Source of the DNA: Cylindrospermopsis raciborskii Cr2010
GTDB taxonomy: Bacteria > Cyanobacteriota > Cyanobacteriia > Cyanobacteriales > Nostocaceae
Length of the DNA: 32,000 nt
Direction: 5' to 3'
Assembly: GCF_003367075.2 (NCBI RefSeq)
Contig: NZ_CP065936.1
Location: forward strand, 2,370,001 to 2,402,000
Every line of letters starts with the position of its first letter. Positions within the stretch are counted from its first letter, which is position 1. Of this stretch, positions 10,575 through 32,000 are shown piece by piece. Made by a program: the position numbers and the translations under genes. Under the pieces are notes generated by a model. It saw nothing but the letters and a program-made list of their open reading frames with translations. It searched no databases and was not told the origin of the DNA.

Positions 10575-10604
10575 AGATTAAGAGTAAATGAACTAAAGGT
10601 TAAA
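10575..10604 (-). promoter_or_regulatory. Candidate Pho box (three 8-bp units at 11-bp spacing) upstream of the phosphatase gene
   Basis: Read on the minus strand: TTTAACCT (10604-10597), 3 nt, GTTCATTT (10593-10586), 3 nt, CTTAATCT (10582-10575). Units 1 and 3 fit the cyanobacterial PyTTAAPyPy(T/A) Pho-box unit, while the middle unit is weak. It lies 106-135 nt upstream of the ATG at 10469. Confidence 0.3.
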
Positions 10605-10744
10605 AAATAGCAACTCTCCTATAACCATAACATAAAGATGATATATATCATAGATAAAAGTCTATTAGAGTTGTTGGGAAATAATACTAATTGTTTAACC
10701 ATAAATCAGCTATAATTAGGTGAGATTAATGTAAAATATCAGGC

Positions 10745-11485
10745 ATGAAAACACCAAAGGCAGTTATTATTGCGGAAGACGTACATAAATGGTATGGTAA
10801 ATTCCATGTCCTTAAAGGGGTGAGTTTAAGAGTAGATCGAGGACAGGTAGTAGTCTTAATGGGCCCATCCGGGTCAGGAAAGTCAACCTTCATACGTACA
10901 TTTAATGCACTAGAAGCATATCAACAGGGGAGAATAATTATTGATGGTATTACCTTGAGTAGGGATTTAAAAAATATTGAGGCGATCCGCTCAGAAACAG
11001 GGATGGTGTTTCAACAGTTTAACTTATTTCCCCATTTAACCGTCTTACAAAACATCACACTAGCACCCATTTGGGTGCGTAAATTGCCAAAAGTTAAAGC
11101 AGAAGAATTGGCAATGCAGCTGTTAGAAAGAGTGGGAATTTTAGCTCAAGCTAATAAATATCCAGGACAATTATCTGGGGGACAACAACAACGGGTAGCC
11201 ATAGCGCGTGCGTTAGCCATGCAACCGAAAATTATGTTATTTGATGAACCGACATCCGCCCTGGATCCAGAAATGGTGCGGGAGGTTTTAGATGTGATGC
11301 GGAATCTTGCCCGGGAGGGAATGACCATGGTAGTGGTGACCCATGAAGTTGGTTTTGCTAGGGAAGTTGCTGACAGGGTGATTTTTATGGATGAAGGTTA
11401 TTTGGTCGAAGACACAACCCCGGATTTGTTTTTTACTGCACCTAAAGAGGAAAGAACGCGAAAGTTTTTATCACAAATTCTTTAG
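10745..11485 (+). CDS. bgtA: Amino-acid ABC transporter ATP-binding protein (AapP/GlnQ/BgtA type)
   Basis: It has Walker [11 protein letters not shown]-loop, signature [15 protein letters not shown], Walker [15 protein letters not shown] and H-loop VVVTHE. At 246 aa it has the typical polar-amino-acid ATPase length. It is the likely partner of natFGH, which lies 4.8 kb upstream. Confidence 0.85.
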
Positions 11486-11547
11486 AATACAGTAACCCAA
11501 TTCTCCGGTTTCTCTTCCTAACTTGTTTAGCAAGTTTTAGATGGGCA

Positions 11548-14139
11548 TCATTCCTGCTTACCAACTATCTTGGATTTGGCTTCTAAATTCTCCAGACGGC
11601 TTCTTAACTCCTGATTTTGTTGTTTGAGCTGGTCTAATTCTTCACGCATGTGACGGAGACTTTTTTCCGGTCCAATGTGCTTTTGAACTTTCGGAATTTC
11701 TTCCTGTGCATAGCGTCTGACCCTTCCATCAGAGGTTTGATCAGCTAGACTTTGTAAAATGCCAATTGCTTTTGGTGTTTCCATTTTTCCTAAGGCGGTG
11801 ATTACAGCGATTTGGGTTAAAAAGAATGTCTCCTTAGCTATTTCTCCTAATTGACCTAAAATTCGTTCTAGATTGGCTGAACTTTGACCTAGGGAAATTT
11901 TACCCAAAGCTCTAATAGCAGATAATCGCAATGCTTGAGAAACCCCTAGTTTGCTGTATTCCAAGACTAAATTTAAGGCAGCTTCTGATGTCTTAAATTG
12001 TGATAATCCAGCAATTGCACCACTTCTAACTATTTCATTCCAACCTGCTCTTGATTGTAAAACAGATGCCAATAAGTTAATTGTAGTGTCTTCATCAATG
12101 TTTTCATCTAGGTTAGTAGCACTAATTAATCCCAAACTTTGACAAGCTGCAGCTTCTACATAATAGCTTTGGTCTCCTTTTTCTACCAGCTCTTTCACAG
12201 CTTGATAACTAGAATAGGTTTTGATTTGAGATAGGGACTCAACCACCGCTAATCGCACAAAGGGACTGGTATCTCCCAACCCGGAAACTAAACTATCAAA
12301 GACCTGATCTAGTTTAACTTCTGCCAGGTTTTTGGCAACTTCTGCTCTCACCCCCCAAAAGGGATCGTTTTGTAAGGCGTTGGATAAAGCTTGTACAACC
12401 TCCCAACCACCTTTTTTGGCTAGTGCTTCTGCTGCATAAATACGAGAAACTGGATGGGGGTCACCTTCTAACTGGGCTTTTAGTTCCGGTAGGGGATATT
12501 CCAAAACTACAGTTTTTAAAAAATTATTGCCTACATCAAAACTGATAAAATCTGGTTTTTCTCCCAAAGGAAAGTAAAAACTTTGTTCTCTTTCATTAAT
12601 CCGCACGGTAAAGGTTTTCAGGGGGGATTTTTCTGCTCTATAACCAAAACCAATGGGAATCTTGAGATCAAATAAATCTCTTTCATCACTAGCTTGAGTT
12701 TGAGTTACTGTGAGTTTTGCTAGGTTAACATCTCCATCCCAAAAGTAAGTAATTTTAAAATCCGGATGACCACCACGATAAACGTATTGGTCAAATAAGA
12801 AACTTAAATTTCTCCCTGTCGCTTTTTCTATGGATCGCAATAAATCTATGGTTTCTACGGTTTGGTGGGCATAATCTTGAACAAAGGTGTGAATGGCTTG
12901 CCAAAATAGCTCTTCCCCTAGCTCTGCGCGAATCATGTGATAAACACAGGAACCTTTTTCGTAAATATGGCGATCATACAGTTCTATCGCTTCTCGGTAA
13001 ACATGAGTTACCATGGGACGACGATAACGATGACTGTCTTCATTTAAATAACTACGTGCTTCTAACAAGCGATAGTAGGCTGCTTCCTCCGGTCCGTATT
13101 CATGCTCTGTCCACATCACTTCTGAATAGGAGGCCATCCCTTCCTTAATCCAAGCATGAGACCAGTGTTTAATGACTAATAAGTCACCAAACCATTGATG
13201 CGCCAATTCATGGACAACTAAACTTTCTGTATTACGGTTGTCTAGGAGGGATCTTTCATCTAGCAAGCATCGATCTGTTAGCAGGGTGGTAGAAGTGTTT
13301 TCCATCCCCCCAAAAATGAAGTCATCCACGCACACTTGAGCATATTTGGGATAGGGGTAAATATAACCATAGCTTTGACTTAAAAATTCTACCATGCGAG
13401 GCGTTTTGCCTAAGCTGCGTTCAGCATCTGCTTCTCTCCCTTTCTCTACGTAATAACTGATAGTTTTATCTTGCCACCCCTGTTTTATCTCTGAAAAATC
13501 ACTGACAGCTAAGGTCATTAAATAGGTTGGATGTACTTGTTTTTGGACCCAGTGATAAATTTGATGATTTCCATCCTCTAATGTATCAATTAACTCACCA
13601 TTGGAAATTGCCATCAGAGGTTTGGGCACGCGAATACGAATTTCTGAGGTGGATAACTGTCCTGGATAATCAAAACAGGGAAACCAGTAACGGGAATCTT
13701 CGTCTTCACCTTGAGTCCATACCTGAGTTGGTTTATGGGGGTAGTATTTGTCCGGTTGGATAAAGTAAATTCCTCTTTGGGGCTTTTCTACTGAGTAGGC
13801 GATCGCCAGTAACAGCCTTTTGCCACACTGGGTAGCTTCAGACAAGTAAATATAAAGCTTTTTTCCATCATGTTCAAACTTCTGCTCAATTTCATTGATT
13901 AAGACAGATTTTATTTTCAGGTTGACAGCATCCAATACTAATCTATCAATGTGATTTCGTATTGGTAATAGACTAATGCTACAATCACCAAAACAAATTT
14001 GGTTGGAAATGTCTAAACTCAAATTCAGAAAAATATGCTCTACTTGTCCTGGCTTATCAGGATTATAATGTGGTTTAGCTCCTGGTAGTTCGAAAGATTT
14101 GTATCTTTTTTTGTCTGTATCAAAATGGAATTGCAACAT
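11548..14139 (-). CDS. M1-family zinc aminopeptidase (aminopeptidase N-like) with a C-terminal HEAT-repeat region
   Basis: It has the GGMEN exopeptidase motif and HELAHQWFGD followed by E 19 residues after the second His (HEXXH-X18-E). The C-terminal ~300 aa have HEAT/PBS-lyase-like repeats (DPFWGVRAEVAKNLAE, DTSPFVRLAVVESLSQ) and end in a short coiled coil. Confidence 0.9.
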   Translation of the reverse strand: MLQFHFDTDKKRYKSFELPGAKPHYNPDKPGQVEHIFLNLSLDISNQICFGDCSISLLPIRNHIDRLVLDAVNLKIKSVLINEIEQKFEHDGKKLYIYLSEATQCGKRLLLAIAYSVEKPQRGIYFIQPDKYYPHKPTQVWTQGEDEDSRYWFPCFDYPGQLSTSEIRIRVPKPLMAISNGELIDTLEDGNHQIYHWVQKQVHPTYLMTLAVSDFSEIKQGWQDKTISYYVEKGREADAERSLGKTPRMVEFLSQSYGYIYPYPKYAQVCVDDFIFGGMENTSTTLLTDRCLLDERSLLDNRNTESLVVHELAHQWFGDLLVIKHWSHAWIKEGMASYSEVMWTEHEYGPEEAAYYRLLEARSYLNEDSHRYRRPMVTHVYREAIELYDRHIYEKGSCVYHMIRAELGEELFWQAIHTFVQDYAHQTVETIDLLRSIEKATGRNLSFLFDQYVYRGGHPDFKITYFWDGDVNLAKLTVTQTQASDERDLFDLKIPIGFGYRAEKSPLKTFTVRINEREQSFYFPLGEKPDFISFDVGNNFLKTVVLEYPLPELKAQLEGDPHPVSRIYAAEALAKKGGWEVVQALSNALQNDPFWGVRAEVAKNLAEVKLDQVFDSLVSGLGDTSPFVRLAVVESLSQIKTYSSYQAVKELVEKGDQSYYVEAAACQSLGLISATNLDENIDEDTTINLLASVLQSRAGWNEIVRSGAIAGLSQFKTSEAALNLVLEYSKLGVSQALRLSAIRALGKISLGQSSANLERILGQLGEIAKETFFLTQIAVITALGKMETPKAIGILQSLADQTSDGRVRRYAQEEIPKVQKHIGPEKSLRHMREELDQLKQQNQELRSRLENLEAKSKIVGKQE

Positions 14140-14431
14140 TGTTTATTAATAGCCTTGTCATCCTGAACATTTTCTTCAACAGAATAGATAATGCACCCTG
14201 TTCAAAATTTAACTTGAGCAGTATGGTCTTTGGAATCTGATGATTACAAGCAATCCCCCCATTCTATCACCCAAGTTTCATATATTGGTATCATCTGATA
14301 TTGGGTAATTTGGAATCGTTAACAAAATTTTCCAAAATCATATCCAGATTATCATTAAGCAGATATTAATTAACTCCCAGAAACTTAGTAATGGACTTTG
14401 TTACTATTTAAGATATTTTCAACCCGAGAGG

Positions 14432-16066
14432 ATGATGACAATGGCTAAGAGTAAATCCAAGTTCCTAATTCCCGCTGTTGGCGCTACCATGGTGGTTGCA
14501 GGGAGCATAGCTACATATCTGTACCTAAATTCTTTTACAAGTGAAACTCCGTTAGAGAGTGCTAAATTAATTCCCAGCAACACTTTAATGGTAACCTACT
14601 TCAATACAGATCCACAACTCTGGAGTAAACTGGGTAAATTTGGCACTTCCCAAGCACGACAAATAGTAACTCAACGGTTACAGTCCGTCAATCAAAGTAT
14701 ATTTGAAAACAATATTTCCTATGAAAAGGATATCCAACCCTGGATTGGTGGTGTCACCCTTGCTGTATTACCATCAAACTCTAATGGGAATTTATCTACC
14801 TCAGCACCTAATCTACTAGTGGTTGGCATTAAGGATAAGTTTGGTGCCCTAAATTTTGCTAATAAATTAAGACAGCAAAAGACTCTCAAAACTGAGGAGT
14901 TCAACTACAAGGGGGAGAAAATTATTTCTAGTAATAACAAGGGTAAGTCTAGTTATCTTTGTTTGTTAAACAGTACATATATACTATTATCTGATCAAAA
15001 GGAAACTGTACAAAAAGCTATTGATACTTTTAAAGGTCAACCTTCCTTTGCAAATGCGGAAGCAAGTAAAATTATTCTTTCTCAAACAGTAGATGTAAAA
15101 AATAGTCTAGGTCAAATATATGTACCTGATTATGGTAAGATGATCAAGGAACTAAGTGCGTCAAGTCCGAATGCTGGACCATTACAACCACAAGTTTTGG
15201 AACAAATTAAGCGAGTAAAATCACTAGTAGCCAAGGTTGGGATTGATGATTGGGGACTCAGGTTTAAAGCGGTGGTAAATTTAGATCCTCAACTAAACAA
15301 GTTTGAGTATGAAAGCAGTTCTTCCAAAATACTGGAACTGGTTCCTGGAGATACTATTGGTTTGGTCACAGGGAAAAACATTAATCGCACCTGGCTAACT
15401 TTCTTAGACGAATCAAAAAATGATCCTCAAATTTGGCAAGGGATTCAACAAGTAAAACAACAATTCCAAAACAATGCTAATATTGACCTCAATAAAGACA
15501 TATTTAGCTGGATGGACGGGGAGTTTGCTTGGAGCGCAGTCAAGTCAAATCAAGGACTACTAGCTAATAGTGGGTTTGGTATAGCAATGGTCTTTGATAC
15601 GAGCGATCGCCCGACAGCGGAAACAACCTTAAAGAAACTAGATGACTTAGTCAGAAAGCAGTCATTAACAGTAGCAAAAAGGAACATTAACAATAAAAGC
15701 ATTACGGAGTGGGGGGTTCCGGGTGGAGGGATTTTATTTACCCATGGTTGGTCAGATCAAGATACCGTATTTATGGCGCTTGGGGGTGCGGTGGGGGAGA
15801 AACTGGCTGACAATAAGGGACAAACCATTGACAAAAGCAACAATTTTAAGTCTGTAATTAGTTCCCTAGAAAAACCCAACGGTGGTTATTTCTATCTGGA
15901 TATGGACAAAACCATCCCCATAATCAATAGTATATCAGGTCAACCCCTACCACCAGATACAACTGCCATTTTATCTTCAATTCGCGGTTTTGGGATGACC
16001 TTTCACAACCCCAATAAGTCCACCACTCAACTGGAAATGTTATTGGGATTGAAACCGAGTAGGTAG
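14432..16066 (+). CDS. Conserved hypothetical membrane-anchored or secreted protein (~540 aa, cyanobacterial DUF family)
   Basis: An N-terminal anchor or signal (KSKFLIPAVGATMVVAGSIATYLYL) is followed by a long soluble region with no catalytic motif I recognise. Its size and style match a cyanobacterial DUF I recall as DUF3352 (unverified). Three in-frame ATGs lie at 14432, 14435 and 14441. The GAGAGGA SD favours 14441. Confidence 0.65.
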   Translation: MMTMAKSKSKFLIPAVGATMVVAGSIATYLYLNSFTSETPLESAKLIPSNTLMVTYFNTDPQLWSKLGKFGTSQARQIVTQRLQSVNQSIFENNISYEKDIQPWIGGVTLAVLPSNSNGNLSTSAPNLLVVGIKDKFGALNFANKLRQQKTLKTEEFNYKGEKIISSNNKGKSSYLCLLNSTYILLSDQKETVQKAIDTFKGQPSFANAEASKIILSQTVDVKNSLGQIYVPDYGKMIKELSASSPNAGPLQPQVLEQIKRVKSLVAKVGIDDWGLRFKAVVNLDPQLNKFEYESSSSKILELVPGDTIGLVTGKNINRTWLTFLDESKNDPQIWQGIQQVKQQFQNNANIDLNKDIFSWMDGEFAWSAVKSNQGLLANSGFGIAMVFDTSDRPTAETTLKKLDDLVRKQSLTVAKRNINNKSITEWGVPGGGILFTHGWSDQDTVFMALGGAVGEKLADNKGQTIDKSNNFKSVISSLEKPNGGYFYLDMDKTIPIINSISGQPLPPDTTAILSSIRGFGMTFHNPNKSTTQLEMLLGLKPSR

Positions 16067-16111
16067 GAAGCATACAATCGTAAATCAACTGCTCATCATC
16101 TAACCATCCAC

Positions 16112-17035
16112 ATGACTACTGCTATCAAACCCGATTTAACTTCAAACTTGGTCAATAGGGTACTTTCCATTAAGCCCTTATTTGATTTTGCTAAACACCA
16201 AGCAAGAGAAATGATGATTAAACGGGCCCAAAAAATAGGTATAAATTGGCATCAAGAAGTGGAAAAGTTGCAAGCACGAGACTGGAGCAATGATCTGGCC
16301 CAAGTGCAAGATCCTCAACTTACCTATCCAGACTACTATCTTACCTCATTTCACGCATACGAAACGGGTAATATGAGTTGGCAAGCTGCTTTTGAGGTAG
16401 AATCTGCTGCTTATGCAGTTCATGCAAAGGTTTGGCCAGATTTTCTTCCTGACGGAGATGCCAAACTTAGACAAAGCTACCACCATATCCTGAAAACCTT
16501 GATCCCCGACACACCAAAGGATATTTTAGACCTAGGTTGCAGTGTGGGAATGAGTACCTTTGCTTTACAAGCAATTTATCCCCAAAGCCAAATTACGGGT
16601 TTGGACTTATCTCCCTATTTTTTAGCTGTTGCTAATTATCGTTCTCAAAAAAGTCCTCAATATCAAAATTCCATTAATTGGCTTCATGCAGCAGCGGAGT
16701 CTACAGGAATGCCAGATAATTCCTATGATCTGGTTTCTATTTTTCTAATGTGTCATGAATTACCCCAGTCTGCTACTCAAAAGATCTTTGTGGAAGCAAG
16801 ACGGGTTTTACGTCCAGGTGGTCATTTGACCATTATGGACATGAATCCCCAATCAGAGATTTACAAAAAAATGCCCACTTATGTTTTTACCTTGCTAAAA
16901 AGTACAGAACCCTATTTAGATGATTACTTTACCCTAGATATGGAGAAATCATTGATAGATGCTGGTTTTAAAACTCCAACTATGACTAGCAATAGTCCTA
17001 GGCACAGAACTGTTATTGCTCAAGTAATCAAGTAA
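16112..17035 (+). CDS. Class I SAM-dependent methyltransferase
   Basis: Motif I is ILDLGCSVGMST, with an acidic residue after beta-2 (ITGLDLS), and the motif post-I/II region is YDLVSIFLMCHELP...LRPGGHLTIMD. I cannot infer the substrate. Confidence 0.8.
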   Translation: MTTAIKPDLTSNLVNRVLSIKPLFDFAKHQAREMMIKRAQKIGINWHQEVEKLQARDWSNDLAQVQDPQLTYPDYYLTSFHAYETGNMSWQAAFEVESAAYAVHAKVWPDFLPDGDAKLRQSYHHILKTLIPDTPKDILDLGCSVGMSTFALQAIYPQSQITGLDLSPYFLAVANYRSQKSPQYQNSINWLHAAAESTGMPDNSYDLVSIFLMCHELPQSATQKIFVEARRVLRPGGHLTIMDMNPQSEIYKKMPTYVFTLLKSTEPYLDDYFTLDMEKSLIDAGFKTPTMTSNSPRHRTVIAQVIK

Positions 17036-17298
17036 TGACCCGCTCTGTGAACAACAACCCTCATATATGGATTACGGGGGATTTATTGACAGGTAAAAAA
17101 GTATCAAAGAACCCTGAAATAACCCCCGGATTCGAAGTAATCTCCCTATTAAATCCCTCTTTTCACCACTTCCAAAGGACTGCTCAGAAATATCCAGAGG
17201 ATGGGGGTAAAAAGGGGTATATCAATGTATCAACTTACCAGGTGTTTATATGACTACCAAATCAAAATCCTACTTAAACGCACTAAAAAACCCCGGAT

Positions 17299-19053
17299 AT
17301 GAAGAGTTTATTTGGTAATTTCCCCAATTTCCCCAACAGAGTCAAAAAAAATTCCCTTCTATTGCTACTATCAATGCTACTACCAACTTTTAGCATCGGT
17401 AGTTCCGCTACAGCAGCAGAAAAAATATATGTTAATTATTCCATTTTAGAAATTCCCATTCCAGTCCTTAGTTTGGAAAAATATACCAAAACGGGAGTGC
17501 TAGATAATGATTTATCAGTTTATCAAAACTCCCTCCAGCAGTTACAAGATTTAAAACAAATACTCTCCATAAAAATACGTATTGATCCTGCCACTACTAA
17601 ACAGTTTCTTCATACCTTACCAGGGGAGTTTATATTACAAAGATTGGCAAAACTAATAACTAATAAATCTGGGGAATCAACATCACAAATTGAAAATTTA
17701 CGCACTGCTATAGTTGCTGCATCAGCACAACCAGAGGGTTTAACATTATTGAACTTAGTGAAAAATTACCCTGGTTATAGTGTGAATATAGACCTAGACC
17801 ATGGTTTATATGTGGCTAAGAATTTAGAGCGGTTAATTAATAAAACAAATCAGGCGATCGCCATTATACAAGAGCAATCAAAAAAAGAAGCTGCTAATAT
17901 TCCCCAAGGGAATTTATCCGTTTTACCAGATTTGCAAAATCAAGGTAATTTCATAGTTAAAAAATCTGTCAAGAATTTTTTTGATACTAGTCGCAATCGG
18001 CAATTATTAACAGATATTTATATTCCAGAAAGTAATAATTTTCATCAGTCGATTCCAGTGATAATTATTTCCCATGGATTAGGTTTAGATAGTAGTAATT
18101 TTCGCTATTTAGCCAAACATCTAGCTTCTCATGGATTAGCTGTGGTTGTTCCCAATCATCCTGACGTGCTGCTCAAAAAAATTAATCTCACTAAATTAGA
18201 AGAAGCAAAAGAGCTGATTGATAGACCTCTTGATATAAAATATATCTTAGATGAACTAGAAAAAATTGACCGGATCCATATACCATTCCAGGGTAAATTG
18301 AATCTGCAACAGGTGGGAGTATTTGGACAATCTCTGGGAGGTTACACCGCCCTAGCATTAGCAGGAGCAAAAATTAACTTTCAGCAACTAAAAAAGGATT
18401 GTACTCCCAATGCACTGGGGGAAACCTGGAACATGTCCTTATTACTTCAATGTCGGGCCCTAGAATTGCCCAATAATTTCTTGACTGAACAACAAGTTAA
18501 GTTAAAATTGAAGTTGTACGGAGACTTGAACACTAATCTCAAAACTAATCTAAAACCAAATTTAACCCTTAATTTACGGGATGATAGAATAAAAGCAGTG
18601 ATTGCGGTTAACCCTTTAATCAGTTCTATATTTGGAGAGGATGGATTAAATGAAATTGCCACTCCAGTTATGTTAATTAGCAGCAGTCAAGACGCTGTCT
18701 CACCAGCGTTATATGAGCAAATTCTTCCTTTTTCCTGGTTAAATAAGGTTAATAAATTTCTGGTTATGCTGGTAGGTGGAACTCATTTTTCTAGCATTGG
18801 CAATAGTGAACCAGGAAGCGAGCAAATACTATTACCACGAGAATTAACCGGAGACACGGATCAGGCCCATACCTATATCAATACTTTAAGTTTGCCTTTC
18901 TTCCAAAGCTATGTATGGGGGAGACCACAATATCTCCCCTACCTCAATGCTGCTTATGCTCAAAAGATTTCTCGTCAGTCCTTGGGTTTAACTCTGATTC
19001 GGTTTTTAAAAACTCCCCAGTTATTACCTCTATTCAAGGAGCAACCAGAGTAG
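17299..19053 (+). CDS. Secreted alpha/beta hydrolase with an N-terminal DUF1400-like domain
   Basis: It has a signal-like N-terminus (LLLLLSMLLPTFSIGSSATAAE) and an AEKIYVNYSILEIPIPVLSLEKYTKTG... segment resembling the cyanobacterial DUF1400 module. The hydrolase core has HG (IISHGLG), the nucleophile elbow GQSLGG and a late GGTHFS. A low-complexity insert LKLKLYGDLNTNLKTNLKPNLTLNL is also present. Confidence 0.8.
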   Translation: MKSLFGNFPNFPNRVKKNSLLLLLSMLLPTFSIGSSATAAEKIYVNYSILEIPIPVLSLEKYTKTGVLDNDLSVYQNSLQQLQDLKQILSIKIRIDPATTKQFLHTLPGEFILQRLAKLITNKSGESTSQIENLRTAIVAASAQPEGLTLLNLVKNYPGYSVNIDLDHGLYVAKNLERLINKTNQAIAIIQEQSKKEAANIPQGNLSVLPDLQNQGNFIVKKSVKNFFDTSRNRQLLTDIYIPESNNFHQSIPVIIISHGLGLDSSNFRYLAKHLASHGLAVVVPNHPDVLLKKINLTKLEEAKELIDRPLDIKYILDELEKIDRIHIPFQGKLNLQQVGVFGQSLGGYTALALAGAKINFQQLKKDCTPNALGETWNMSLLLQCRALELPNNFLTEQQVKLKLKLYGDLNTNLKTNLKPNLTLNLRDDRIKAVIAVNPLISSIFGEDGLNEIATPVMLISSSQDAVSPALYEQILPFSWLNKVNKFLVMLVGGTHFSSIGNSEPGSEQILLPRELTGDTDQAHTYINTLSLPFFQSYVWGRPQYLPYLNAAYAQKISRQSLGLTLIRFLKTPQLLPLFKEQPE

Positions 19054-24358: not shown

Positions 24359-26629
24359 TTATGTTGGTGAGCTCTCCATTTCACCCACCCTCCGAATATT
24401 CAGAATGTCACTCATTTTTTTGATCTGCACAAACAAATGTTCTAATTGATTGCGATCGCGGACTTCAATACCAAGCTTCATCAATGCTGGTTGACCGGAG
24501 GTGGTCTTTACATCAGCGTGACGGACGTTGATACCTTGATCAGTGAGTCTAGATAGAACATCTTTTAAAATACCAACTCTATCCAGGGTCTCGATTTGAA
24601 TGGCCACGGGATATGTTTGGGGACGGTGGTGATGTTCCATAGCTGTATTCCACTGTACAGGTACGAACCGTTCATATTCTACCTGCTCTAAGTTATGACA
24701 GGATTGACGATGAATGGATATACCTCTTCCTCTAGTTACCACACCAATAATTGGTTCTCCCGGAATTGGTGTACAACATCCAGCTACATGATAAACCAAA
24801 CCTTCTACTCCTAAGATTGGCGAGTCAGTGGACTTGGACGTGGTGGGAAAGCTGTCCTTAAAAGTTTTAGGAGATAAATCTTTAGGTAAAAACGGAATTA
24901 TGTCAGCTACGGGCTGCTGTGACTTGATTATATCTCGCCAGCGATTTAAGACTAAATTTAAGGTAATTTCTCCATACCCCAAACCTGCTAATAAATCTTC
25001 CACATTGTGATAATTGCACTTTTCTGCTATGGTTTGCATGGGGTTAGATTTTAACAGGTGATCAAATCCGGTTTTGCCTAATTCTTTCTCTAATAATTCC
25101 TTACCTCTAGTAATATTCTCTTCCCTTCGGGAACGTTTGTACCATTGTTTAATTCGATATTTTGCTGCTGAAGTCCTGACAAAATTCAACCAGTCTAAAC
25201 TAGGATGACTATTCTTTTGAGTAATAATATCAACAATGTCCCCATTCTGTAGTCGGGTTGATAGGGGTACTATGCGCCCGTTTACCCTTGCTCCTGCGCA
25301 GTGGTTTCCCACTTCTGTGTGAATGCTATAGGCAAAGTCTATACTAGTAGAGCCTGGACTGAGAGCAACCACATCTCCTTTAGGGGTAAAAACATAAACA
25401 TCATCTTCAAATAAATTATCTTTAACACTGTCTAAATATTCTTGGGCATCTTTCAAATCACTTTGCCAGTCTAATAATTGCCGTAACCAGGCAAATTTTT
25501 CATCTGTCCCTGTAACTTGAGCTGTAGATCCACCTGTTTCCTTATACTTCCAGTGAGCTGCAATACCATATTCTGCTACATGGTGCATTTCCATTGTGCG
25601 GATTTGCACCTCTAGGGGACGACCAGTTAAACCAATTACACATGTATGTAAAGACTGATAACGATTAGGTTTAGGCAATCCAATGTAATCTTTAAATCTA
25701 CCGGGAATGGGACAAAAAGCATCATGCACTACTGCTAAAGCGCGATAACATTCCTCATTTGTTTCTACAATAATTCTTAATGCAGCCAAATCATAAATTT
25801 CATGAAATTCCTTTTGCTGACGCTGCATTTTCTGATAAATGCTATACAGGTGTTTAGGACGGCCACTAATATCCAAACATTTAATTCCCGCTTGTTCAAT
25901 TCTCTCCCGCAATACCTCCTTAGCTTTGTTTAATTTTTCTTCCCGTGCGGTTCTTTTTTCCGCCACGTGTTCTTGAATTTCTCGATAAGCATCCGGTTCC
26001 AAATATTTAAACGCTAAGTCTTCTAGTTCCCATTTAATGTGCCAAATACCCAACCGATTAGCTAGGGGGGCAAAAATGTCTCTAGTCTCCTGGGCACTGC
26101 GACGACGACTGGTTTCCGACATATACTGTAGAGTGCGCATATTGTGTAACCTGTCTGCCAATTTCACTACAATCACTCGGATATCCTGGGCCATGGATAA
26201 AAACATTCGCCGAAAATTTTCTGCTTGACTTTCGGTTTTGCTGGTGAAGTTAATTTTCGATAATTTAGTCACACCCTCCACCAATTGTCTGACTTCATGA
26301 CCAAATTTCTGTTCTATATCCTCAATTGTGACTTCTGTATCCTCAACTACATCATGTAGAAACCCAGCTGCTATCATAGTAGCACTACAACCTAAATCCC
26401 TTAACAAATCAGCTACTGCTATTGGGTGAGCTATATAGGGTTCTCCCGATTTTCTGTACTGTCCTTCATGTAGTTCATAAGCAAACTTTAAGGCACTGCA
26501 AATTAAATTGTTATCATTACGCCTTCGGTCATCCTCTCCTGAACCACTGTTGCTAGTGTTTTCTTGAAGGCATCTTTTTAGCCATTGAGGTAGGTTAATC
26601 TTTGTCAAAGGATCAATAAAGCTGGTCAT
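24359..26629 (-). CDS. spoT: Bifunctional (p)ppGpp synthetase/hydrolase, RelA/SpoT homologue
   Basis: It has an HD hydrolase domain (YIAHPIAVA...GFLHDVVEDT), a synthetase domain (GRPKHLYSIYQKM...DLAALRIIV...YQSLHT), TGS (VYVFTPKGDVVALSPGSTSIDFAY) and a C-terminal ACT-like domain. It is 756 aa. Confidence 0.93.
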   Translation of the reverse strand: MTSFIDPLTKINLPQWLKRCLQENTSNSGSGEDDRRRNDNNLICSALKFAYELHEGQYRKSGEPYIAHPIAVADLLRDLGCSATMIAAGFLHDVVEDTEVTIEDIEQKFGHEVRQLVEGVTKLSKINFTSKTESQAENFRRMFLSMAQDIRVIVVKLADRLHNMRTLQYMSETSRRRSAQETRDIFAPLANRLGIWHIKWELEDLAFKYLEPDAYREIQEHVAEKRTAREEKLNKAKEVLRERIEQAGIKCLDISGRPKHLYSIYQKMQRQQKEFHEIYDLAALRIIVETNEECYRALAVVHDAFCPIPGRFKDYIGLPKPNRYQSLHTCVIGLTGRPLEVQIRTMEMHHVAEYGIAAHWKYKETGGSTAQVTGTDEKFAWLRQLLDWQSDLKDAQEYLDSVKDNLFEDDVYVFTPKGDVVALSPGSTSIDFAYSIHTEVGNHCAGARVNGRIVPLSTRLQNGDIVDIITQKNSHPSLDWLNFVRTSAAKYRIKQWYKRSRREENITRGKELLEKELGKTGFDHLLKSNPMQTIAEKCNYHNVEDLLAGLGYGEITLNLVLNRWRDIIKSQQPVADIIPFLPKDLSPKTFKDSFPTTSKSTDSPILGVEGLVYHVAGCCTPIPGEPIIGVVTRGRGISIHRQSCHNLEQVEYERFVPVQWNTAMEHHHRPQTYPVAIQIETLDRVGILKDVLSRLTDQGINVRHADVKTTSGQPALMKLGIEVRDRNQLEHLFVQIKKMSDILNIRRVGEMESSPT

Positions 26630-26761
26630 AGGAATAGTGGGTTTTTTAGTGGGTTAATGCTTTTGGTATTTGGTTTCAAAACTGTGGATATAGTCTTGAA
26701 ACTGGGTGTTTTTGGCTGTAAATCGATTAAGAATCGAGTTCTGCCATCAATTTTTGCGATC

Positions 26762-27172
26762 ATGGCAGAACCTAGTAATCTGATTCTAGAAGATATAATT
26801 GTACTCCAGATTCAAGAAATAGAAGTCCTAATGTCCTTTAAATATCAAAAATATCAAGAATTGAAAACCTTGGTTGAGCTATTGTTGTCAGATGTTAACA
26901 AAGCCCATGTCTACGATCCCACCTGGAAATCCCTTTTGGGTGAGATCAGCGGTTTTTTTGCGCGAGAAATTGCCGTCTTTAGTGATTTGGAATCTCGTCA
27001 GCAGTCTTATCAAACAGAGATAAGTAAACAGATACGTTTATTAGAACTTGATATGATGTTTTTACAAAGTGCAAAACAGACACTAACTATAAAATCACGA
27101 TTGGAAAGTATTCAACAAAGAGCTGAAATTTTAATTAGATATTGTCAAAACATATTAGAAATAAGCTGTTAG
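26762..27172 (+). CDS. Hypothetical helical/coiled-coil protein (136 aa)
   Basis: The ORF is open from 26657, but the first 35 codons look non-genic, so I prefer the ATG at 26762 (MAEPSNLILEDIIVLQIQEIE...). The sequence is heptad-rich and I recognised no domain. Confidence 0.5.
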   Translation: MAEPSNLILEDIIVLQIQEIEVLMSFKYQKYQELKTLVELLLSDVNKAHVYDPTWKSLLGEISGFFAREIAVFSDLESRQQSYQTEISKQIRLLELDMMFLQSAKQTLTIKSRLESIQQRAEILIRYCQNILEISC

Positions 27173-27360
27173 TGATTAACCACCGGTTCACTATCATATA
27201 GGGAGAATGATAAGATAAATTTATATAAATGCTATCGTTTTTTGAATGGGAGTCACTAGACTTATTTCTAGACTACATCAACGATCTTAACCGATATGAC
27301 TCCAATATGAACACAGGATGAATGATTTAATTTACTAATATAAAATTTCCATGAAACCTC

Positions 27361-27390
27361 TTGCCATTTTCCTAAAACTAGTGATATATT
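27361..27390 (+). promoter_or_regulatory. Candidate sigma70-type promoter (TTGCCA-N18-TATATT) driving the small-RNA candidate
   Basis: TTGCCA lies at 27361-27366 and TATATT at 27385-27390. There is no ORF downstream before the terminator at 27421-27463. Confidence 0.4.
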
Positions 27391-27396
27391 CTATTT

Positions 27397-27463
27397 GTGT
27401 GTGAGGAGCAAAGTTCAAAAGGCGCTTAGGGTGGAAACACGGCAACACTCCTGGGCGCTTTTT
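27397..27463 (+). ncRNA. Candidate small RNA of about 67 nt, possibly Yfr2-family-like (carries an anti-Yfr1 motif)
   Basis: The predicted transcript starts about 7 nt after the -10 box and ends in a strong intrinsic terminator. Near its 5' end is GUGUGAGGAG (27399-27408), the exact complement of the CUCCUCACAC core of the conserved cyanobacterial Yfr1 motif. No start codon or ORF is present. Confidence 0.4.
27421..27463. terminator. Bidirectional intrinsic terminator
   Basis: GGCGCUUAGGG...CCUGGGCGCC-type stem: GCGCUUAGG (27422-27430) pairs with CCUGGGCGC (27450-27458), with two G-U pairs. TTTTT follows on the + strand (27459-27463). On the - strand CTTTTG follows, immediately downstream of the lipoate-ligase-like gene stop at 27476. 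Confidence 0.7.
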
Positions 27464-27475
27464 GATTGTGTAGCT

Positions 27476-28213
27476 TTAGTGGGGATCAGATGCCATAATT
27501 TCTTGCCACTCTTCCGGGGAAAGAGGTTCCTCTTCTAGAACCATATTAAAGACATCACAAGCAGCAGCAATCAAACTGGGAATAATAACTTCCTGAGTCA
27601 GACTCTTAGGGAGGCTAATGGGAAAAAAGGAACCTTCACCAAATATGGTCTCAAACAGCTCCTGATCCGGTTCCAAAACCATGGAGCCATGTTGGAGAAT
27701 GACCTTATCAGTTCGCAGTTGGGCGCTACCAATCAGTTTAGCACCATTTGATAGAATTAAATCTGCACCCGTTGCAGTGCCAAAGCAGTTGGGATTGTGA
27801 ATATAACCCCTTCCTGCTTGACCATAGCTTAATTGTACCCCAAGTGACCCCCATCCTTGAATCAGAAAGTCACAAATCTTGGTGTAAGATTGCAATCGGT
27901 TCCCGGTTATTCCTGATGTGATAACGGTATAGGTTAAATCACCTTGATGTAGAACCGCCCTACCACCACTGGGACGAGAGACCAAATCTATCTTCTCACC
28001 TTGCCAAATTAAGTCATGCCAAAATTCTGGGTATGTTTTTTGATGATGACCCAGGGAAATAGCTGGGGGAGACCAGGTATAAAACCTGAGAATTCCAGAG
28101 TATGTTTTTAAAGATTGGTGCTCATGCTGTTGTAGTAACCACCTGTCAACTGCCATTTGTATTTTACCAGGTGCTGGAAAACAGGGAATTAACCGCCAAA
28201 TTTGTTTGACCAC
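27476..28213 (-). CDS. Lipoate-protein ligase A / BPL-LplA-LipB family protein
   Basis: Family blocks are WRLIP......QMAVDRWLL, PAISLGHHQ, RPSGGRAVLH.GDLTY and the lysine motif GAKLIGSAQLR. I place the start at the GTG 28213 (MVKQIWRLIP), because the ORF-track extension to 28318 is Cys/Phe-rich junk that overlaps the divergent gene. The start remains uncertain; the ATG at 28156 is an alternative. Confidence 0.75.
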   Translation of the reverse strand: MVKQIWRLIPCFPAPGKIQMAVDRWLLQQHEHQSLKTYSGILRFYTWSPPAISLGHHQKTYPEFWHDLIWQGEKIDLVSRPSGGRAVLHQGDLTYTVITSGITGNRLQSYTKICDFLIQGWGSLGVQLSYGQAGRGYIHNPNCFGTATGADLILSNGAKLIGSAQLRTDKVILQHGSMVLEPDQELFETIFGEGSFFPISLPKSLTQEVIIPSLIAAACDVFNMVLEEEPLSPEEWQEIMASDPH

Positions 28214-28283
28214 AAAAAGTTGGAAAACTACTAAAACTACTATAGTATGGTAGATAGTAGAATTCTGAGCAAGGAAAAAACAG

Positions 28284-28859
28284 TTGCAAGAATCACAACA
28301 AAAAGCACCAACACACAAGATACCAAAAGAACCAACATTCTACTATTTTGCCTATGGTTCTTGCATGTGCCCGGTAGACCTAAAGCGATCGCTTGGTGAG
28401 AATGTCCATCCTTACGTAGTTGGACATGGCATACTAAAAGAATATAGACTGAGATTTTATGGCTACTCTCATTTACGTAAATGCGGAGTTTTAGATGTGG
28501 TACAAGATACTGCATCCCTGGTTAGGGGTGTGCTGTATGAACTACCTTGGAGGTTCAGCGAAAATTTGGATAAGAGAGAGGGGGTATGCCAGGAATTCTA
28601 TCGTCGTGAGATGGTCAAGATTCAGCACCAAGGTGAAATATACAAAAATGTTCGCACGTACGTCGTGGTAAATAAATTACTAGAGGAAATACCACCAAAT
28701 GATTGGTATTTTAATGTAGTATTAAGGGGTGCAATTACCTGTGGGTTACCAGAAGAATATTGCTGGCATTTGTTTGACAAAATGCACGGGTTACAACAGA
28801 AATCGCACCAAACCTCTAATATTAGTAAAAATAATTTTAAGAAGACCTGCAACTCCTGA
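28284..28859 (+). CDS. Gamma-glutamylcyclotransferase / AIG2-like family protein
   Basis: It has FYYFAYGSCMCPVDLKRSLG (the YGS.M motif) and GVLYELP with the conserved Glu. The only in-frame start upstream of the conserved block is the TTG at 28284, so the start is tentative. Confidence 0.7.
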   Translation: MQESQQKAPTHKIPKEPTFYYFAYGSCMCPVDLKRSLGENVHPYVVGHGILKEYRLRFYGYSHLRKCGVLDVVQDTASLVRGVLYELPWRFSENLDKREGVCQEFYRREMVKIQHQGEIYKNVRTYVVVNKLLEEIPPNDWYFNVVLRGAITCGLPEEYCWHLFDKMHGLQQKSHQTSNISKNNFKKTCNS

Positions 28860-28871
28860 ATCTAGTAATGG

Positions 28872-29468
28872 TTAGTCTAATTCCCGACGACCTTCTAGTG
28901 CTTTAGCCAATGTAATTTCATCAGCGTACTCTAAATCACCACCCATAGGTAAACCGAAAGCGATACGGGTTACCCTGGTAAATGGTTTAAGTAACCCAGC
29001 TATATACAGAGTTGTAGTTTCCCCCTCCACGCTAGGACTAATGGCCATAATTACCTCTTGGGGTTTTTGTTGACTAACCCGACGGACGAGAGCTTGTAAA
29101 GTCAACTGTTCAGGTCCAATACCATCCATAGGAGAAATTACCCCACCCAAGACGTGATACTTACCCCTATACTCGCGGGTTTTTTCCAGAGCAATCACAT
29201 CGCGGGAATCAGCAACCACACAAATGGTTTGACTATCTCGATGGGGATTGCGGCAAATTTCACATACGGGTTCTGCTGTGAGATGATAACAAACCTGACA
29301 TAAACCCACCTGTTTTTTGGCATCAATTAATGTTTGTGCAAGAGCCTCAATTTCTGACTCTGGACGCTTTAGGATATATAAAGCCAAGCGTTGGGCGGAC
29401 TTGGGCCCAACTCCGGGAAGGCGTTGTAATTGTTCAATTAATCGGGCTAAGGGGCGTGTATAAACCGT
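28872..29468 (-). CDS. recR: Recombination protein RecR; the conserved N-terminus lacks a canonical start codon (putative ACG start)
   Basis: It has the C4 zinc finger [19 protein letters not shown] and Toprim ([16 protein letters not shown]...). The frame extends upstream of the ORF-track TTG (29387) as [27 protein letters not shown], which is the RecR helix-hairpin-helix. There is no in-frame ATG, GTG or TTG between the stop at 29499-29501 and 29387. AGGAG (complement of 29476-29480) sits 7 nt before an in-frame ACG (29466-29468). Confidence 0.85.
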
Positions 29469-29618
29469 AAATTTTCTCCTGTGCTTACAAACGTAATTTT
29501 ATGGTAATCCTAATCAAGGTTAAAACTAAGTTTAGCAAAAAGCATCTGGAAATTACACCTTATACTATAATTAGGTGATACTAAAGCTTAGTAGATAAGG
29601 TAAACGGAAGTTAACACA

Positions 29619-32000
29619 ATGCACTACCTAACAGATCCTGCGGAAATCTACCAGCAAATTTCTCAGCTTGCTAAGTGTAAAAGTCTGTGGCTAGATACGG
29701 AAATCGCTGATTGGAATACTCCGTGTCCTAGGTTATCACTAATTCAGGTATTGGCTAACCCTACGGACTTAATCGGTGAGTTTGCTTATATTTTCGATGT
29801 CTTAGATAAGCCCGATATTTCCACATATTTTATTAGCCAAATTATGGTTGATGCCCAGATTCAAAAGGTGTTTCATAATGCAGATTTTGATTTGAAATAT
29901 TTAGGTAAAAACTCAGCTAAAAACGTTACTTGTACTTTTAAAGTAGCTAAAAAAATTGGACATAGAATTTTACAAACCACTAACTTAAAACTAAAAACTT
30001 TAGCTGTTGAACTGTGTCACTTTTCCGATGTGGATAAGGAAGGAGGAGCTAGTGATTGGGGAAAACGACCTCTGTGTGAAAAACAACTAAAGTATGCTGC
30101 TATGGATACGGTTTACCTCGCTGCTGTTCATCGTCGGTTAATGGAATTATCCGATCCTGATGCTGTCAGTAGTATTTTTAATAACAATTTTGATAATACT
30201 ACCCCCAATATCCTTCATGATATGGCAAACCCTGAATCAGAAAATTCTTCTTTGACTCCCACCAAACTAAGATTGGCTTTTGAGTGTCCTCGGATATTTT
30301 ATCTTAATCATCGTTTTAATAATAAATCTTTGTTTATTCCGGAAGGTTTGATTGGTGGTATTGGTAATGTTTTTCATAAATTGGCAGATGAATTTATCGA
30401 TTTATTGCTGAATGATGCCGAACTTACAACTCTATTTAATCCCCATCCTAACGAAATAAATTTGCAAGAGGTGGTGTTAGCGCTTCAGCAGTCATTTTAT
30501 AAAATTGTCTTTTTTCCCTATTCTCAAACCCAGGAAGAGAGCAAGTCTTTGGTATTACATCAAGTTTGGCTAGGATTAACAGGATTAATTAAAAAGTTCA
30601 CTGAGTTATTGATTAGCAATCGAAATTATTGCCATGCCAACTTACTTATTGCTAATACTTTTATGAGGGAGGATCGCGTTTTAGAACATGATTTTAATTT
30701 ACCAAATGGTAAAAGACAACTGATAAGAGGTAAATGTGATTGTTTGGTATTTGATTTTGCAACCAACCGGTTTTCTGTGATAGAGTTTAAAACTTATCAA
30801 CCAATAGATACATCAGCACAAGTGGCTCAGGTCGCCCTGTATAGCTATATATTATCTGAGAGAAAAAAAGTACCTGTTAATGTTGCTGTTTATTGCGTTC
30901 TACCTGAATTCAAGGAGTATAAATATACTGCCGAAGAGTTAGAAAATAATATTCACCAAGTCATACCTCATAAATTATTACAAATGCAAAATTGGTTGAC
31001 CTGGGAACCTCCCCAACCCAATCCACCTCCTATGACATCCCAGTCTCACTTATGTCAAATTTGCCCCGAAAAACAAAAGTGTCAGACTTTTTTTGCTCCC
31101 GACTTTGACAACTATTTTAATAACTGGGAGTTTAATCATCAGGATTCCCCAAATATTGAGGGTAAGAATTCCCCCCAAACAAGTAAAACTCAGAAAAATA
31201 ATCCCTTTAATCCCGATCAAATTGGGTTAGATTTGGTGAACACTTTGAAATCCTTTGGTATTGGTGTGGAGTATCAAGGTGCTATAGTAGGTCCGGCATT
31301 TGTAAGAGTGAAATTAAAACCTAATTTGGGTGTTAAAGTGAATTCTTTATTGAAATTATCTGATGATTTACGGGTGCAATTGGGACTAGAATGCCCACCC
31401 TTAATTGCATCACAAGCTGGCTATGTAAGTGTTGATTTACCCCGCAAAGACCGAGAAATTGCCAGATTTGAAGATTATATGCAAAAGAATTTTTTATCTG
31501 CGACTGCTAAGTTAAAAATTGCCCTTGGATTGAATATTGATGGGAAGTTAGTAGAAGCTGATTTGTCTGATCCTAATACCTGTCATTTTTTAGTTGGTGG
31601 AACCACCGGAAGTGGCAAAAGTGAGTTTTTAAGATCCTTGCTCCTAAGTTTGCTCTATCGACATTCTCCTGAACACTTGAAAATTGTTTTAGTAGACCCT
31701 AAAAGAGTCACTTTTCCTGAGTTTGAAACAATTCCCTGGTTGTATTCACCAGTCGTAAAAAATAGCGATCGCGCCATAGAGTTAATGAGTGAGTTAGTAG
31801 CAGAGATGGAATCCCGATACCAAAAATTTGAGCTGGCTAAATGTGCCAACATAACAGTTTATAATCAAAACTGTGCCCAGGTTTTACCACGTATAGTTTG
31901 TATATTTGATGAATATGCGGATTTCATGATAGAGAAAGAGACCCGAACTGCTTTAGAGCAGAGTATTAAACGTTTAGGAGCAATGGCAAGAGCAGCGGGA
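29619..32000 (+). CDS. Three-module fusion protein: DEDDy 3'-5' exonuclease, Cas4/RecB-like PD-(D/E)xK Fe-S nuclease and FtsK/SpoIIIE-family DNA translocase ATPase (partial, continues beyond the window)
   Basis: My own translation from the ATG at 29619 (an in-frame TAA lies at 29601-29603) gives 794 codons with no stop to the window end. Exonuclease motifs are LWLDTEIAD, VFHNADFDLKYL and KYAAMDTVY. Nuclease motifs are FECPRIFY, GKCDCLVFD, VIEFKTY, QVAQVALYSY and LCQICPEKQKC. FtsK motifs are GPAFVRVKLKPNLGVKV, GGTTGSGKSEF (Walker A), LVDPKRV, AEMESRY and IVCIFDEYADFM (Walker B). It is missing from the ORF track because it is open-ended. Confidence 0.85.
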   Translation, partial: MHYLTDPAEIYQQISQLAKCKSLWLDTEIADWNTPCPRLSLIQVLANPTDLIGEFAYIFDVLDKPDISTYFISQIMVDAQIQKVFHNADFDLKYLGKNSAKNVTCTFKVAKKIGHRILQTTNLKLKTLAVELCHFSDVDKEGGASDWGKRPLCEKQLKYAAMDTVYLAAVHRRLMELSDPDAVSSIFNNNFDNTTPNILHDMANPESENSSLTPTKLRLAFECPRIFYLNHRFNNKSLFIPEGLIGGIGNVFHKLADEFIDLLLNDAELTTLFNPHPNEINLQEVVLALQQSFYKIVFFPYSQTQEESKSLVLHQVWLGLTGLIKKFTELLISNRNYCHANLLIANTFMREDRVLEHDFNLPNGKRQLIRGKCDCLVFDFATNRFSVIEFKTYQPIDTSAQVAQVALYSYILSERKKVPVNVAVYCVLPEFKEYKYTAEELENNIHQVIPHKLLQMQNWLTWEPPQPNPPPMTSQSHLCQICPEKQKCQTFFAPDFDNYFNNWEFNHQDSPNIEGKNSPQTSKTQKNNPFNPDQIGLDLVNTLKSFGIGVEYQGAIVGPAFVRVKLKPNLGVKVNSLLKLSDDLRVQLGLECPPLIASQAGYVSVDLPRKDREIARFEDYMQKNFLSATAKLKIALGLNIDGKLVEADLSDPNTCHFLVGGTTGSGKSEFLRSLLLSLLYRHSPEHLKIVLVDPKRVTFPEFETIPWLYSPVVKNSDRAIELMSELVAEMESRYQKFELAKCANITVYNQNCAQVLPRIVCIFDEYADFMIEKETRTALEQSIKRLGAMARAAG

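Follow-up and report, generated by a model that had tools for sequence, protein, structure and literature searches.

A predicted FtsK-type DNA pump fused to two nucleases in Cylindrospermopsis raciborskii and the unlinked partners of its conserved three-gene operon

What does a DNA translocase of the FtsK type do when it carries two nucleases at its N-terminus, and to which cellular process does it belong? This question is raised by a gene at the 3' edge of a 32-kb stretch of the genome of Cylindrospermopsis raciborskii Cr2010 (termed the window here), in which an open reading frame (ORF) begins with the ATG at 29619 on the plus strand and stays open through base 32000, giving 794 codons upon translation. 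Profile matches and alignments confirm the predicted product as a soluble FtsK-type DNA pump fused to two nucleases with intact catalytic motifs. Its relatives were found to be the third gene of a conserved operon, preceded by a small-protein gene and an AAA_16 ATPase gene, and the system is split over two loci in this species. In our estimate the chances are about even that the gene is the effector of a three-part DNA-targeting system, consisting of a loader, a pump and a degradation module, that probably serves in defence against foreign DNA.

The long ORF is genuine. A frameshift or an assembly artefact, which a preliminary description of this DNA had named as a possible objection, was ruled out because the complete protein (P0001) was called with the same length of 873 amino acids (aa) on three independent assemblies and because a second contig (L001), 99.99% identical to window positions 24479-32000, reaches 1273 bp further and gives both the C-terminus and the downstream gene. 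The remaining 79 codons and the stop codon fall approximately 240 nucleotides (nt) past the window end. In the homology search, P0001 differed from the window version by one residue. A pseudogene was rejected as well, on account of the 873-aa ORF in many strains, the support from L001 and an overall ratio of nonsynonymous to synonymous substitution rates (dN/dS) of 0.16. At codon 411 (30849-30851) the window has Ile (YSYILSE) and both L001 and all 30 aligned homologues have Met, which would be either a single-base strain difference or a sequencing error. With the C-terminus recovered, no match to Ftsk_gamma was found on the full-length 873-aa protein, which stops approximately 25 aa beyond the beta domain. 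The full-length protein also contains no hydrophobic or transmembrane segment (maximum 19-aa Kyte-Doolittle score of 1.07), in agreement with the earlier suggestion that it has no membrane anchor.

Four Pfam domains were found in the protein, all of them exceeding the curated cut-offs (Table 1), and this four-domain architecture is common to all of the best 120 homologues listed. Matches to NCBIfam and PADLOC models were generic and consistent with Pfam (FtsK, EssC, RNase D, Cas4 and the SspH FtsK module). The three-module anatomy given in the preliminary description is borne out by these matches, and most of its catalytic assignments were reproduced in the alignments, namely ExoI (D26/E28) and ExoIII (Y159/D163) of the exonuclease, D374, E389-x-K391, QxxxY and the four-cysteine pattern of the second nuclease, and intact Walker A and Walker B motifs in the motor. 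Its choice of D89 as the ExoII aspartate was wrong, since this position is occupied by Gly or Ser in orthologues; the invariant residue is D91, at the canonical N-x2-[FY]-D position.

The DEDDy 3'-5' exonuclease domain scores 93 bits against a cut-off of 23.6, and its catalytic residues D26, E28, D91, Y159 and D163 are unchanged in an alignment of 30 homologues. Among solved structures, NrnC, diDNase and RNase D come closest to it in sequence (PDB search). In the PD-(D/E)xK domain, D374, K391 and Q404-x3-Y408 are invariant in cyanobacterial and non-cyanobacterial relatives, even at the 17-26% identity seen with other phyla, and E389 is nearly invariant with Asp as a substitute in one cyanobacterial homologue. 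The cysteines C223 ... C479-x2-C482-x5-C488, one N-terminal and three C-terminal, are also invariant across cyanobacterial and other-phylum relatives, and they fit the pattern of the predicted Fe-S "iron staple" of Cas4 and AddB as described in PMC12094033. In some cyanobacterial branches the cysteines persist although the PD-(D/E)xK catalytic residues have been lost. Cas4 proper was rejected as an identity for this domain, as the cas4 model TIGR00372 gives 30.9 bits, below its cut-off of 65, and no cas genes were found in the window. Judged by these sequence features the nuclease is Cas4-like and not Cas4.

The motor is composed of FtsK alpha and beta domains, the former aligning to the P. 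aeruginosa FtsK structure 2IUU and the latter reaching an E-value of 6e-45 on the full-length protein, where it is complete to approximately aa 850. A PDB sequence search with the motor gave E 3.5e-55 to the same structure, and Walker A, Walker B and the TQRP motif at aa 801-804 are invariant in the alignments. These features are shared with the septal FtsK/SpoIIIE proteins of E. coli, P. aeruginosa and B. subtilis, where TQRP belongs to the sensor, and by analogy with them the protein is presumably a hexameric pump for double-stranded DNA (dsDNA).

The family is common and not an oddity of one genome. A total of 820 protein clusters were found with E<=1e-10, and relatives were found in at least 260 species genomes in a scan of one genome per species, for which an alignment of the cyanobacterial subset served as the query. 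The best 80 of these 260 genome matches are all cyanobacteria, the named ones being filamentous and mostly Nostocales, together with Microseira, Argonema and Plectonema. At 90% identity, P0001 clusters with proteins from Cylindrospermopsis (Raphidiopsis) raciborskii strains only. The protein is neither rare nor unannotated; its relatives carry labels such as "DNA translocase FtsK", "cell division protein FtsK" and "PD-(D/E)XK nuclease family protein". The architecture survey, a search across 1.8 billion cluster representatives, found a constant core of Cas4-like nuclease and FtsK alpha/beta motor with differing N-termini, which are either DEDDy, YbjN, DEDDy plus a protein kinase, or nothing at all, the last in relatives from Myxococcota and Candidatus Magnetomorum. 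The protein tree approximately matches taxonomy. In phage records the nuclease modules were not found beyond generic DEDDy matches, and a phage-borne origin was rejected on this ground. In Mastigocoleus testarum BC008 the whole locus occurs on two contigs (L061 and L063) with the same coordinates and identities, which is either a recent duplication or assembly redundancy.

Gene order was compared in 81 related loci. In all 81 the gene immediately upstream, in the same orientation, is an AAA_16 gene, with a gap to the effector gene of at most 132 nt in 65 of them and with frequently overlapping starts, and a small-protein gene (about 280 aa) precedes the AAA_16 gene in 79. The order in Trichormus variabilis is a 288-aa protein, a 675-aa AAA_16/AAA_22 ATPase, the orthologue and a ParA-like gene, the first three being closely spaced. 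Across Nostocales and some Oscillatoriales the block is situated between a glycosyltransferase gene and ileS. Because of this conserved neighbourhood, and because the tree matches taxonomy, the operon is old and mainly vertically inherited within these groups. In 62 of the 81 loci (e.g. L004 12682-13566) the operon is followed by a gene for a ParA/MinD-family ATPase of 294 aa, whose identity across genera is 77-95%; the arrangements in C. raciborskii, Myxococcota and Pseudanabaena lack this gene. The preliminary description had pictured a self-contained machine resembling HerA-NurA or AddAB. The likeness is a reasonable one but the protein does not stand alone, and the operon escaped that reading because the partners lie at another locus in this species.

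Trios of the same kind were also found with exonuclease-less effectors. In a metagenome-assembled genome of Myxococcota (L092), hidden Markov models identified a small-protein homologue (E 8e-22) and an AAA_16 ATPase homologue (E 5e-68), the trio is translationally coupled, and its effector is a PDDEXK-FtsK protein with Cas6, Cas2 and reverse-transcriptase genes near it. Within the same locus (10046-18049), the PDDEXK-FtsK gene overlaps at its 3' end with a 547-aa gene that has no match in Pfam. This 547-aa gene may be a fourth component, and after it come a deaminase-like gene and then those three. Another such trio occurs on the conjugative megaplasmid pPSE7367.01 of Pseudanabaena sp. PCC 7367 (L093, 298-10058), where it adjoins genes for a SWIM zinc-finger protein and a DEAD/DEAH helicase, and an IS21 element.

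The AAA_16 ATPase varies strongly between close relatives: its identity between species can be as low as 46-52% where the effector is 83-91% and the adjacent ParA-like protein 89-95% identical. This divergence runs along the full length of the protein and falls into discrete types (e.g. L004 7944-9971; loci L004-L084). In the middle gene of an operon that otherwise evolves like a clock, allele-like hypervariability of this kind is what a specificity or sensor subunit would be predicted to show under diversifying selection. The best profile for the ATPase is AAA_16 (UniRef "Orc1-like AAA ATPase domain"), with weaker matches to AAA_22, NACHT, KAP and BrxC/D. An AlphaFold2 model of the ATPase has an alpha/beta unit followed by a winged-helix-like end in its confident part, and a Foldseek search against the PDB returned the restriction endonucleases (REases) MspJI and EcoT38I, ORC subunits and winged helix-turn-helix (wHTH) proteins, matches that are suggestive but not significant. 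The small protein gave weak profile matches to MarR/HosA winged-helix regulators (E 0.02) and to Z-alpha (E 0.1), and it is probably a DNA-binding, winged-helix-like protein.

The FtsK-type motor raises the possibility that the protein is the cell-division FtsK of cyanobacteria, which would clear or segregate DNA at the septa of filaments while its nucleases cut DNA that is not moved in time. A bona fide FtsK alpha and beta motor, the label "DNA translocase FtsK / cell division protein FtsK" that every source database gives it, the general lack of a canonical FtsK on cyanobacterial chromosomes reported in the literature, and the fit of a ParA-like neighbour with filamentous, incompletely separating hosts are all in line with such a role. 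We nevertheless consider it improbable. Unlike septal FtsK, the protein has two nucleases at its N-terminus in an operon with an AAA_16 partner, it has neither an N-terminal membrane domain nor a long linker that would serve at the septum, and it has no gamma domain, which in septal FtsK reads the FtsK-orienting polar sequences (KOPS), activates XerD and provides directionality. Coupling to a hypervariable ATPase, the homologous trios on a conjugative plasmid and beside CRISPR genes, and the absence of the ParA-like gene from three of the arrangements described above also speak against a division role. Anabaena cell-division papers take All7666 as "FtsK", without mention of this protein, and in a 2020 review the only proteins listed are HerA-like ones and All7666. 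Together with the distribution, in which the listed loci are cyanobacterial and the named ones filamentous, this literature led us to reject identity with a universal cyanobacterial FtsK, a possibility that had been foreseen in the preliminary description.

In C. raciborskii the gene stands apart from its partners. Neither the small-protein gene nor the AAA_16 gene was found in the 32-kb window. Upstream of the gene are spoT, lplA, a GGACT-family gene and recR, and downstream, on L001, are the genes for a TPR protein and psiE. An intact small-protein gene and a 706-aa AAA_16 gene were found at another locus of the same genome in C. raciborskii CHAB3438, and the two accessions lie approximately 1350-1640 proteins apart in C. 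curvispora GIHE-G1 and R. curvata NIES-932, whose genomes are complete; the system is therefore split over two loci in this species. A second, divergent type of the effector, 884-887 aa long and 69-74% identical, was found in C. raciborskii from South America and in R. brookii D9. It retains the linked arrangement, into which an AAA_15/21 gene and a DUF3368 gene are inserted, and its effector is fragmented in several strains, R. brookii D9 among them. In C. raciborskii CENA303 (L086 3564-5391) the insert between the AAA_16 gene and the effector gene consists of one 444-aa gene with SMC_N/AAA_15/AAA_21 and UPF0175 and of a 166-aa DUF3368 gene. CENA302 appears, from its sequences, to carry ATPase genes of both types.

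The position next to recR had been taken in the preliminary description as a hint of a role in recombination. The divergent spacer of approximately 150 bp is real if the conserved N-terminus of recR is counted, but a functional meaning is not borne out by the comparison, as recR adjoins the gene in none of the 81 related loci. DNA homology to the closest sister genome, whose protein is 89% identical, starts only 12 bp before the ATG, and the TPR gene on the downstream side lies in inverted orientation. Because the breakpoints hug the gene, recR adjacency is accidental, a lineage-specific rearrangement that carries no functional information. On the minus strand at 29388-29465, recR itself has a conserved N-terminal helix-hairpin-helix segment (29 protein letters, not shown here) upstream of its first canonical start, a TTG at 29387. 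No in-frame ATG, GTG or TTG is present between the preceding stop codon and this segment, and the same is seen in Dendronalium (L042 17566-18180), which suggests a non-canonical start codon or a systematically mis-set start.

Separation from the partners also allows the explanation that the gene no longer functions and is being lost as an orphan. Neither partner lies in the window, fragmented related copies occur in several strains including R. brookii D9 and CS-505, and the lineage has reduced genomes. This explanation is very improbable in our estimate. Many C. raciborskii strains have the 873-aa ORF in intact form, all catalytic residues are kept, and the partner genes are intact elsewhere in the same genomes. 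Compared with the sister orthologue, the overall dN/dS of 0.16 is made up of values of 0.19 for the exonuclease, 0.18 for the PDDEXK domain and 0.08 for the motor, the linker between nuclease and motor having the highest value among the four regions (0.47). These ratios indicate that the gene is under purifying selection and still functional despite its unlinked partners.

Table 1. Features of the translocase-nuclease gene and of its upstream spacer, in window coordinates
Feature	Position	Strand	Basis or remark
recR-gene divergent spacer	29466..29618	.	lineage-specific upstream sequence
Translocase-nuclease gene, 5' 794 of 873 codons	29619..32000	+	ORF, Pfam, homologues
DEDDy 3'-5' exonuclease domain, aa 2-175	29622..30143	+	DNA_pol_A_exo1 PF01612, E 2e-26
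Cas4/AddB-like PD-(D/E)xK domain, aa 212-489	30252..31085	+	PDDEXK_1 PF12705, E 4e-11
Low-complexity linker at nuclease-motor junction, aa 490-522	31086..31184	+	length-variable, aligns poorly
FtsK alpha domain, aa 523-608	31185..31442	+	FtsK_alpha PF17854, E 9e-9
FtsK/SpoIIIE beta domain (RecA-like motor), aa 619 to window end	31473..32000	+	PF01580, E 5e-38
Walker A GGTTGSGKS, aa 660-668	31596..31622	+	alignments
Walker B region IFDEYAD, aa 762-768	31902..31922	+	alignments

The reading that we favour, as the effector of a loader-guided system against foreign DNA, can be put as a sequence of steps. The winged-helix-like protein and the Orc1/Cdc6-like AAA_16 ATPase would recognise the target DNA and recruit, load or activate the FtsK alpha/beta ring. 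Targeting and loading are assigned to the partners because the protein has no gamma domain, which normally guides FtsK onto DNA; Orc/Cdc6 proteins are the ring loaders of replication. The hexameric motor would then pump dsDNA in an ATP-driven manner, and the fused Cas4-like and DEDDy 3'-5' nucleases, six of each around the channel, would cut and degrade the threaded DNA. The target would be foreign DNA, from phages or plasmids or other linear DNA, and the whole would be a functional analogue of HerA-NurA and RecBCD-type "thread and shred" machines. In C. raciborskii the effector gene would have been translocated away from its partners, landed beside recR and remained functional. We rate defence as the most likely role because the partner is hypervariable, modules are swapped, relatives occur on a plasmid and adjacent to CRISPR genes, duplication and decay are seen at the level of strains, and a published prediction points in the same direction. 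The hypervariable AAA_16 gene, the swapped effector N-termini, the loss of PD-(D/E)xK catalytic residues in some lineages, the two divergent types within C. raciborskii, the strain-level fragmentation and the inserted genes are typical signatures of a conflict system.

Several points weigh against this reading. The domains with their intact motifs, the conserved operon, the hypervariable partner, the split loci and the purifying selection are observed, and partner loading, DNA degradation and the defence role are inferred. The rest of the window contains ordinary metabolic and housekeeping genes, and PADLOC system models gave no match beyond the generic domain matches. A deeply conserved glycosyltransferase-ileS neighbourhood with a ParA-like gene and a tree that approximately follows taxonomy are commoner for housekeeping genes than for a mobile defence island. 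The AAA_16 partner was not confirmed as an Orc/Cdc6 protein with an inactive REase, given that its AlphaFold2 model is confident for aa 420-706 only and that all of its Foldseek matches have E >= 0.03. The AlphaFold2 model of the effector was built on an alignment of 30 sequences, with homologues at least 67% identical, which is too shallow; it has a predicted local distance difference test score (pLDDT) of 36, does not give the geometry of nucleases and pore, and was left unused for fold search. Moreover, FtsK moves along duplex DNA without unwinding it, and nucleases of the Cas4 family usually act on single strands.

An alternative, second in likelihood, is a housekeeping enzyme of filamentous cyanobacteria for double-strand break processing and recombination that replaces RecBCD or AddAB. 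In such an enzyme the motor would engage a DNA end, which the Cas4-like (5'-3') and DEDDy (3'-5') nucleases would then resect so that RecA can be loaded through RecFOR. In its favour, nearly all heterocystous cyanobacteria carry the vertically inherited operon in a syntenic position, purifying selection acts strongly on every domain, the Cas4-like domain shares homology with the nuclease domains of AddB and RecB, and recR adjoins the gene in the window. Most cyanobacteria lack RecBCD and AddAB (PMC12094033, PMC5101192), recBCD being absent from larger-genome cyanobacteria including Anabaena sp. 90, and with HerA-NurA there is already an example of a FtsK/HerA-class motor that serves in resection (PMC12977600). 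We consider the repair enzyme unlikely all the same. Adjacency to recR is lineage-specific, being confined to this arrangement among the loci compared, with a breakpoint 12 bp from the ATG. The listed loci are only cyanobacterial, the named ones filamentous, with exonuclease-less kin in Myxococcota and on a conjugative plasmid, a distribution that does not track the absence of RecBCD. A hypervariable partner, swapped N-terminal modules and pseudogenisation at the level of strains are also unexpected for a repair enzyme. Defence and repair are compatible with each other and not mutually exclusive, if the analogy with RecBCD is followed.

The published prediction that comes closest to the favoured defence system is that of Krishnan et al. 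(Krishnan, Burroughs, Iyer and Aravind; NAR 2024, PMC10853773), a computational description of Orc/CDC6-REase-HerA/FtsK "capture" operons for which the authors propose a counter-invader role. The ATPase of these operons is of the Orc/CDC6 type, carries an inactive REase as an insert and ends in a wHTH; it is encoded together with an active REase and an FtsK-alpha/FtsK motor "captured" from cellular FtsK, sometimes with a multi-wHTH protein or a fused 3'-5' exonuclease (PMC10853773). The protein in the window likewise combines an FtsK-alpha/FtsK motor with an active REase-fold nuclease and a 3'-5' exonuclease, which is fused in some of the capture systems, and an Orc/CDC6-type AAA+ protein is encoded in the operon of the related loci and is present but unlinked in its own species. 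The small, fast-evolving winged-helix protein of the capture systems has a possible counterpart in the weakly matching small protein described above. Unlike the capture systems, which occur in mobile neighbourhoods, the operon studied here is vertical and syntenic across Nostocales, and it is split in this genome. The published examples were not confirmed to include this cyanobacterial family, nor was the inactive-REase insert confirmed in its partner. The features are thus compatible with the Krishnan operons and are not proof of membership. The earlier statement that no characterised protein has this domain order stands as far as experiments are concerned, since we found no experimental study of the family in the literature and only the Krishnan paper was relevant, but the class itself had been described computationally in 2024.

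The archaeal end-resection complex HerA-NurA is the closest mechanistic analogue, having a motor of the FtsK/HerA superfamily that feeds duplex DNA to an attached nuclease. It differs in that the motor described here is of the FtsK clade with an alpha domain, and in that the DEDDy and Cas4-like nucleases are fused in cis instead of forming a separate NurA dimer; the DUF87/HerA match to the protein is sub-threshold (21 against 23.2 bits) and no NurA was detected. With AddAB, RecBCD and the Cas4 family the protein shares the D...ExK and QxxxY motifs of PD-(D/E)xK nucleases, the 1+3 cysteines and the logic of processive degradation driven by a motor, but the motor is a ring translocase on dsDNA and not an SF1 helicase. 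To our knowledge, no Chi-type regulation has been described for this protein. The best PADLOC matches were to DndH/SspH (E 5e-45), which also combine a captured FtsK-type ATPase with a nuclease. This match is limited to the FtsK module, aa 535-794 against 1409-1680 of 1766, and the eight further domains of DndH are all missing. Neither the window nor the related loci were found to contain Dnd or Ssp genes, and membership in DndH/SspH was rejected on both grounds.

Elsewhere in the window, the minus strand at 6031-10469 carries a pair of alkaline-phosphatase-like ORFs, 651 and 500 aa long and separated by small ORFs; the 500-aa one has RTX calcium-binding repeats.

Taken together, the gene in C. 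raciborskii is best read as the displaced effector of a widespread three-gene system that had been noticed computationally, and not as a lone curiosity tied to recR. A more far-reaching formulation, which we put forward tentatively and hold to be possible but doubtful, is that filamentous cyanobacteria and some other multicellular bacteria possess an ancient, mostly vertically inherited three-protein machine in which a hypervariable Orc/Cdc6-like ATPase and a winged-helix adaptor replace the gamma domain, select a DNA target and load onto it a soluble FtsK ring whose nucleases destroy both strands. It would then be a new mechanistic class of DNA-degrading immunity or genome surveillance, a ring-translocase counterpart of RecBCD in a phylum without RecBCD and AddAB, and C. 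raciborskii would be an example of an effector that works while genetically unlinked from its loader.

If the favoured defence role is true, a dsDNA ring pump would be used as a weapon and not as a segregation motor, with the choice of target made by an Orc/Cdc6-like loader, in a compact and experimentally tractable system. The hypervariability of the AAA_16 ATPase inside a conserved syntenic operon offers a testable hypothesis of specificity, and the widespread misannotation as "cell division protein FtsK" would be corrected. The system is near-ubiquitous in heterocyst-formers, including the bloom-forming Cylindrospermopsis, Dolichospermum and Aphanizomenon and the model genera Anabaena and Nostoc. 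In these organisms a defence system of this kind could explain part of the barrier to transformation and to the entry of phages and plasmids, and it could suggest how a phylum largely without RecBCD and AddAB handles linear DNA.

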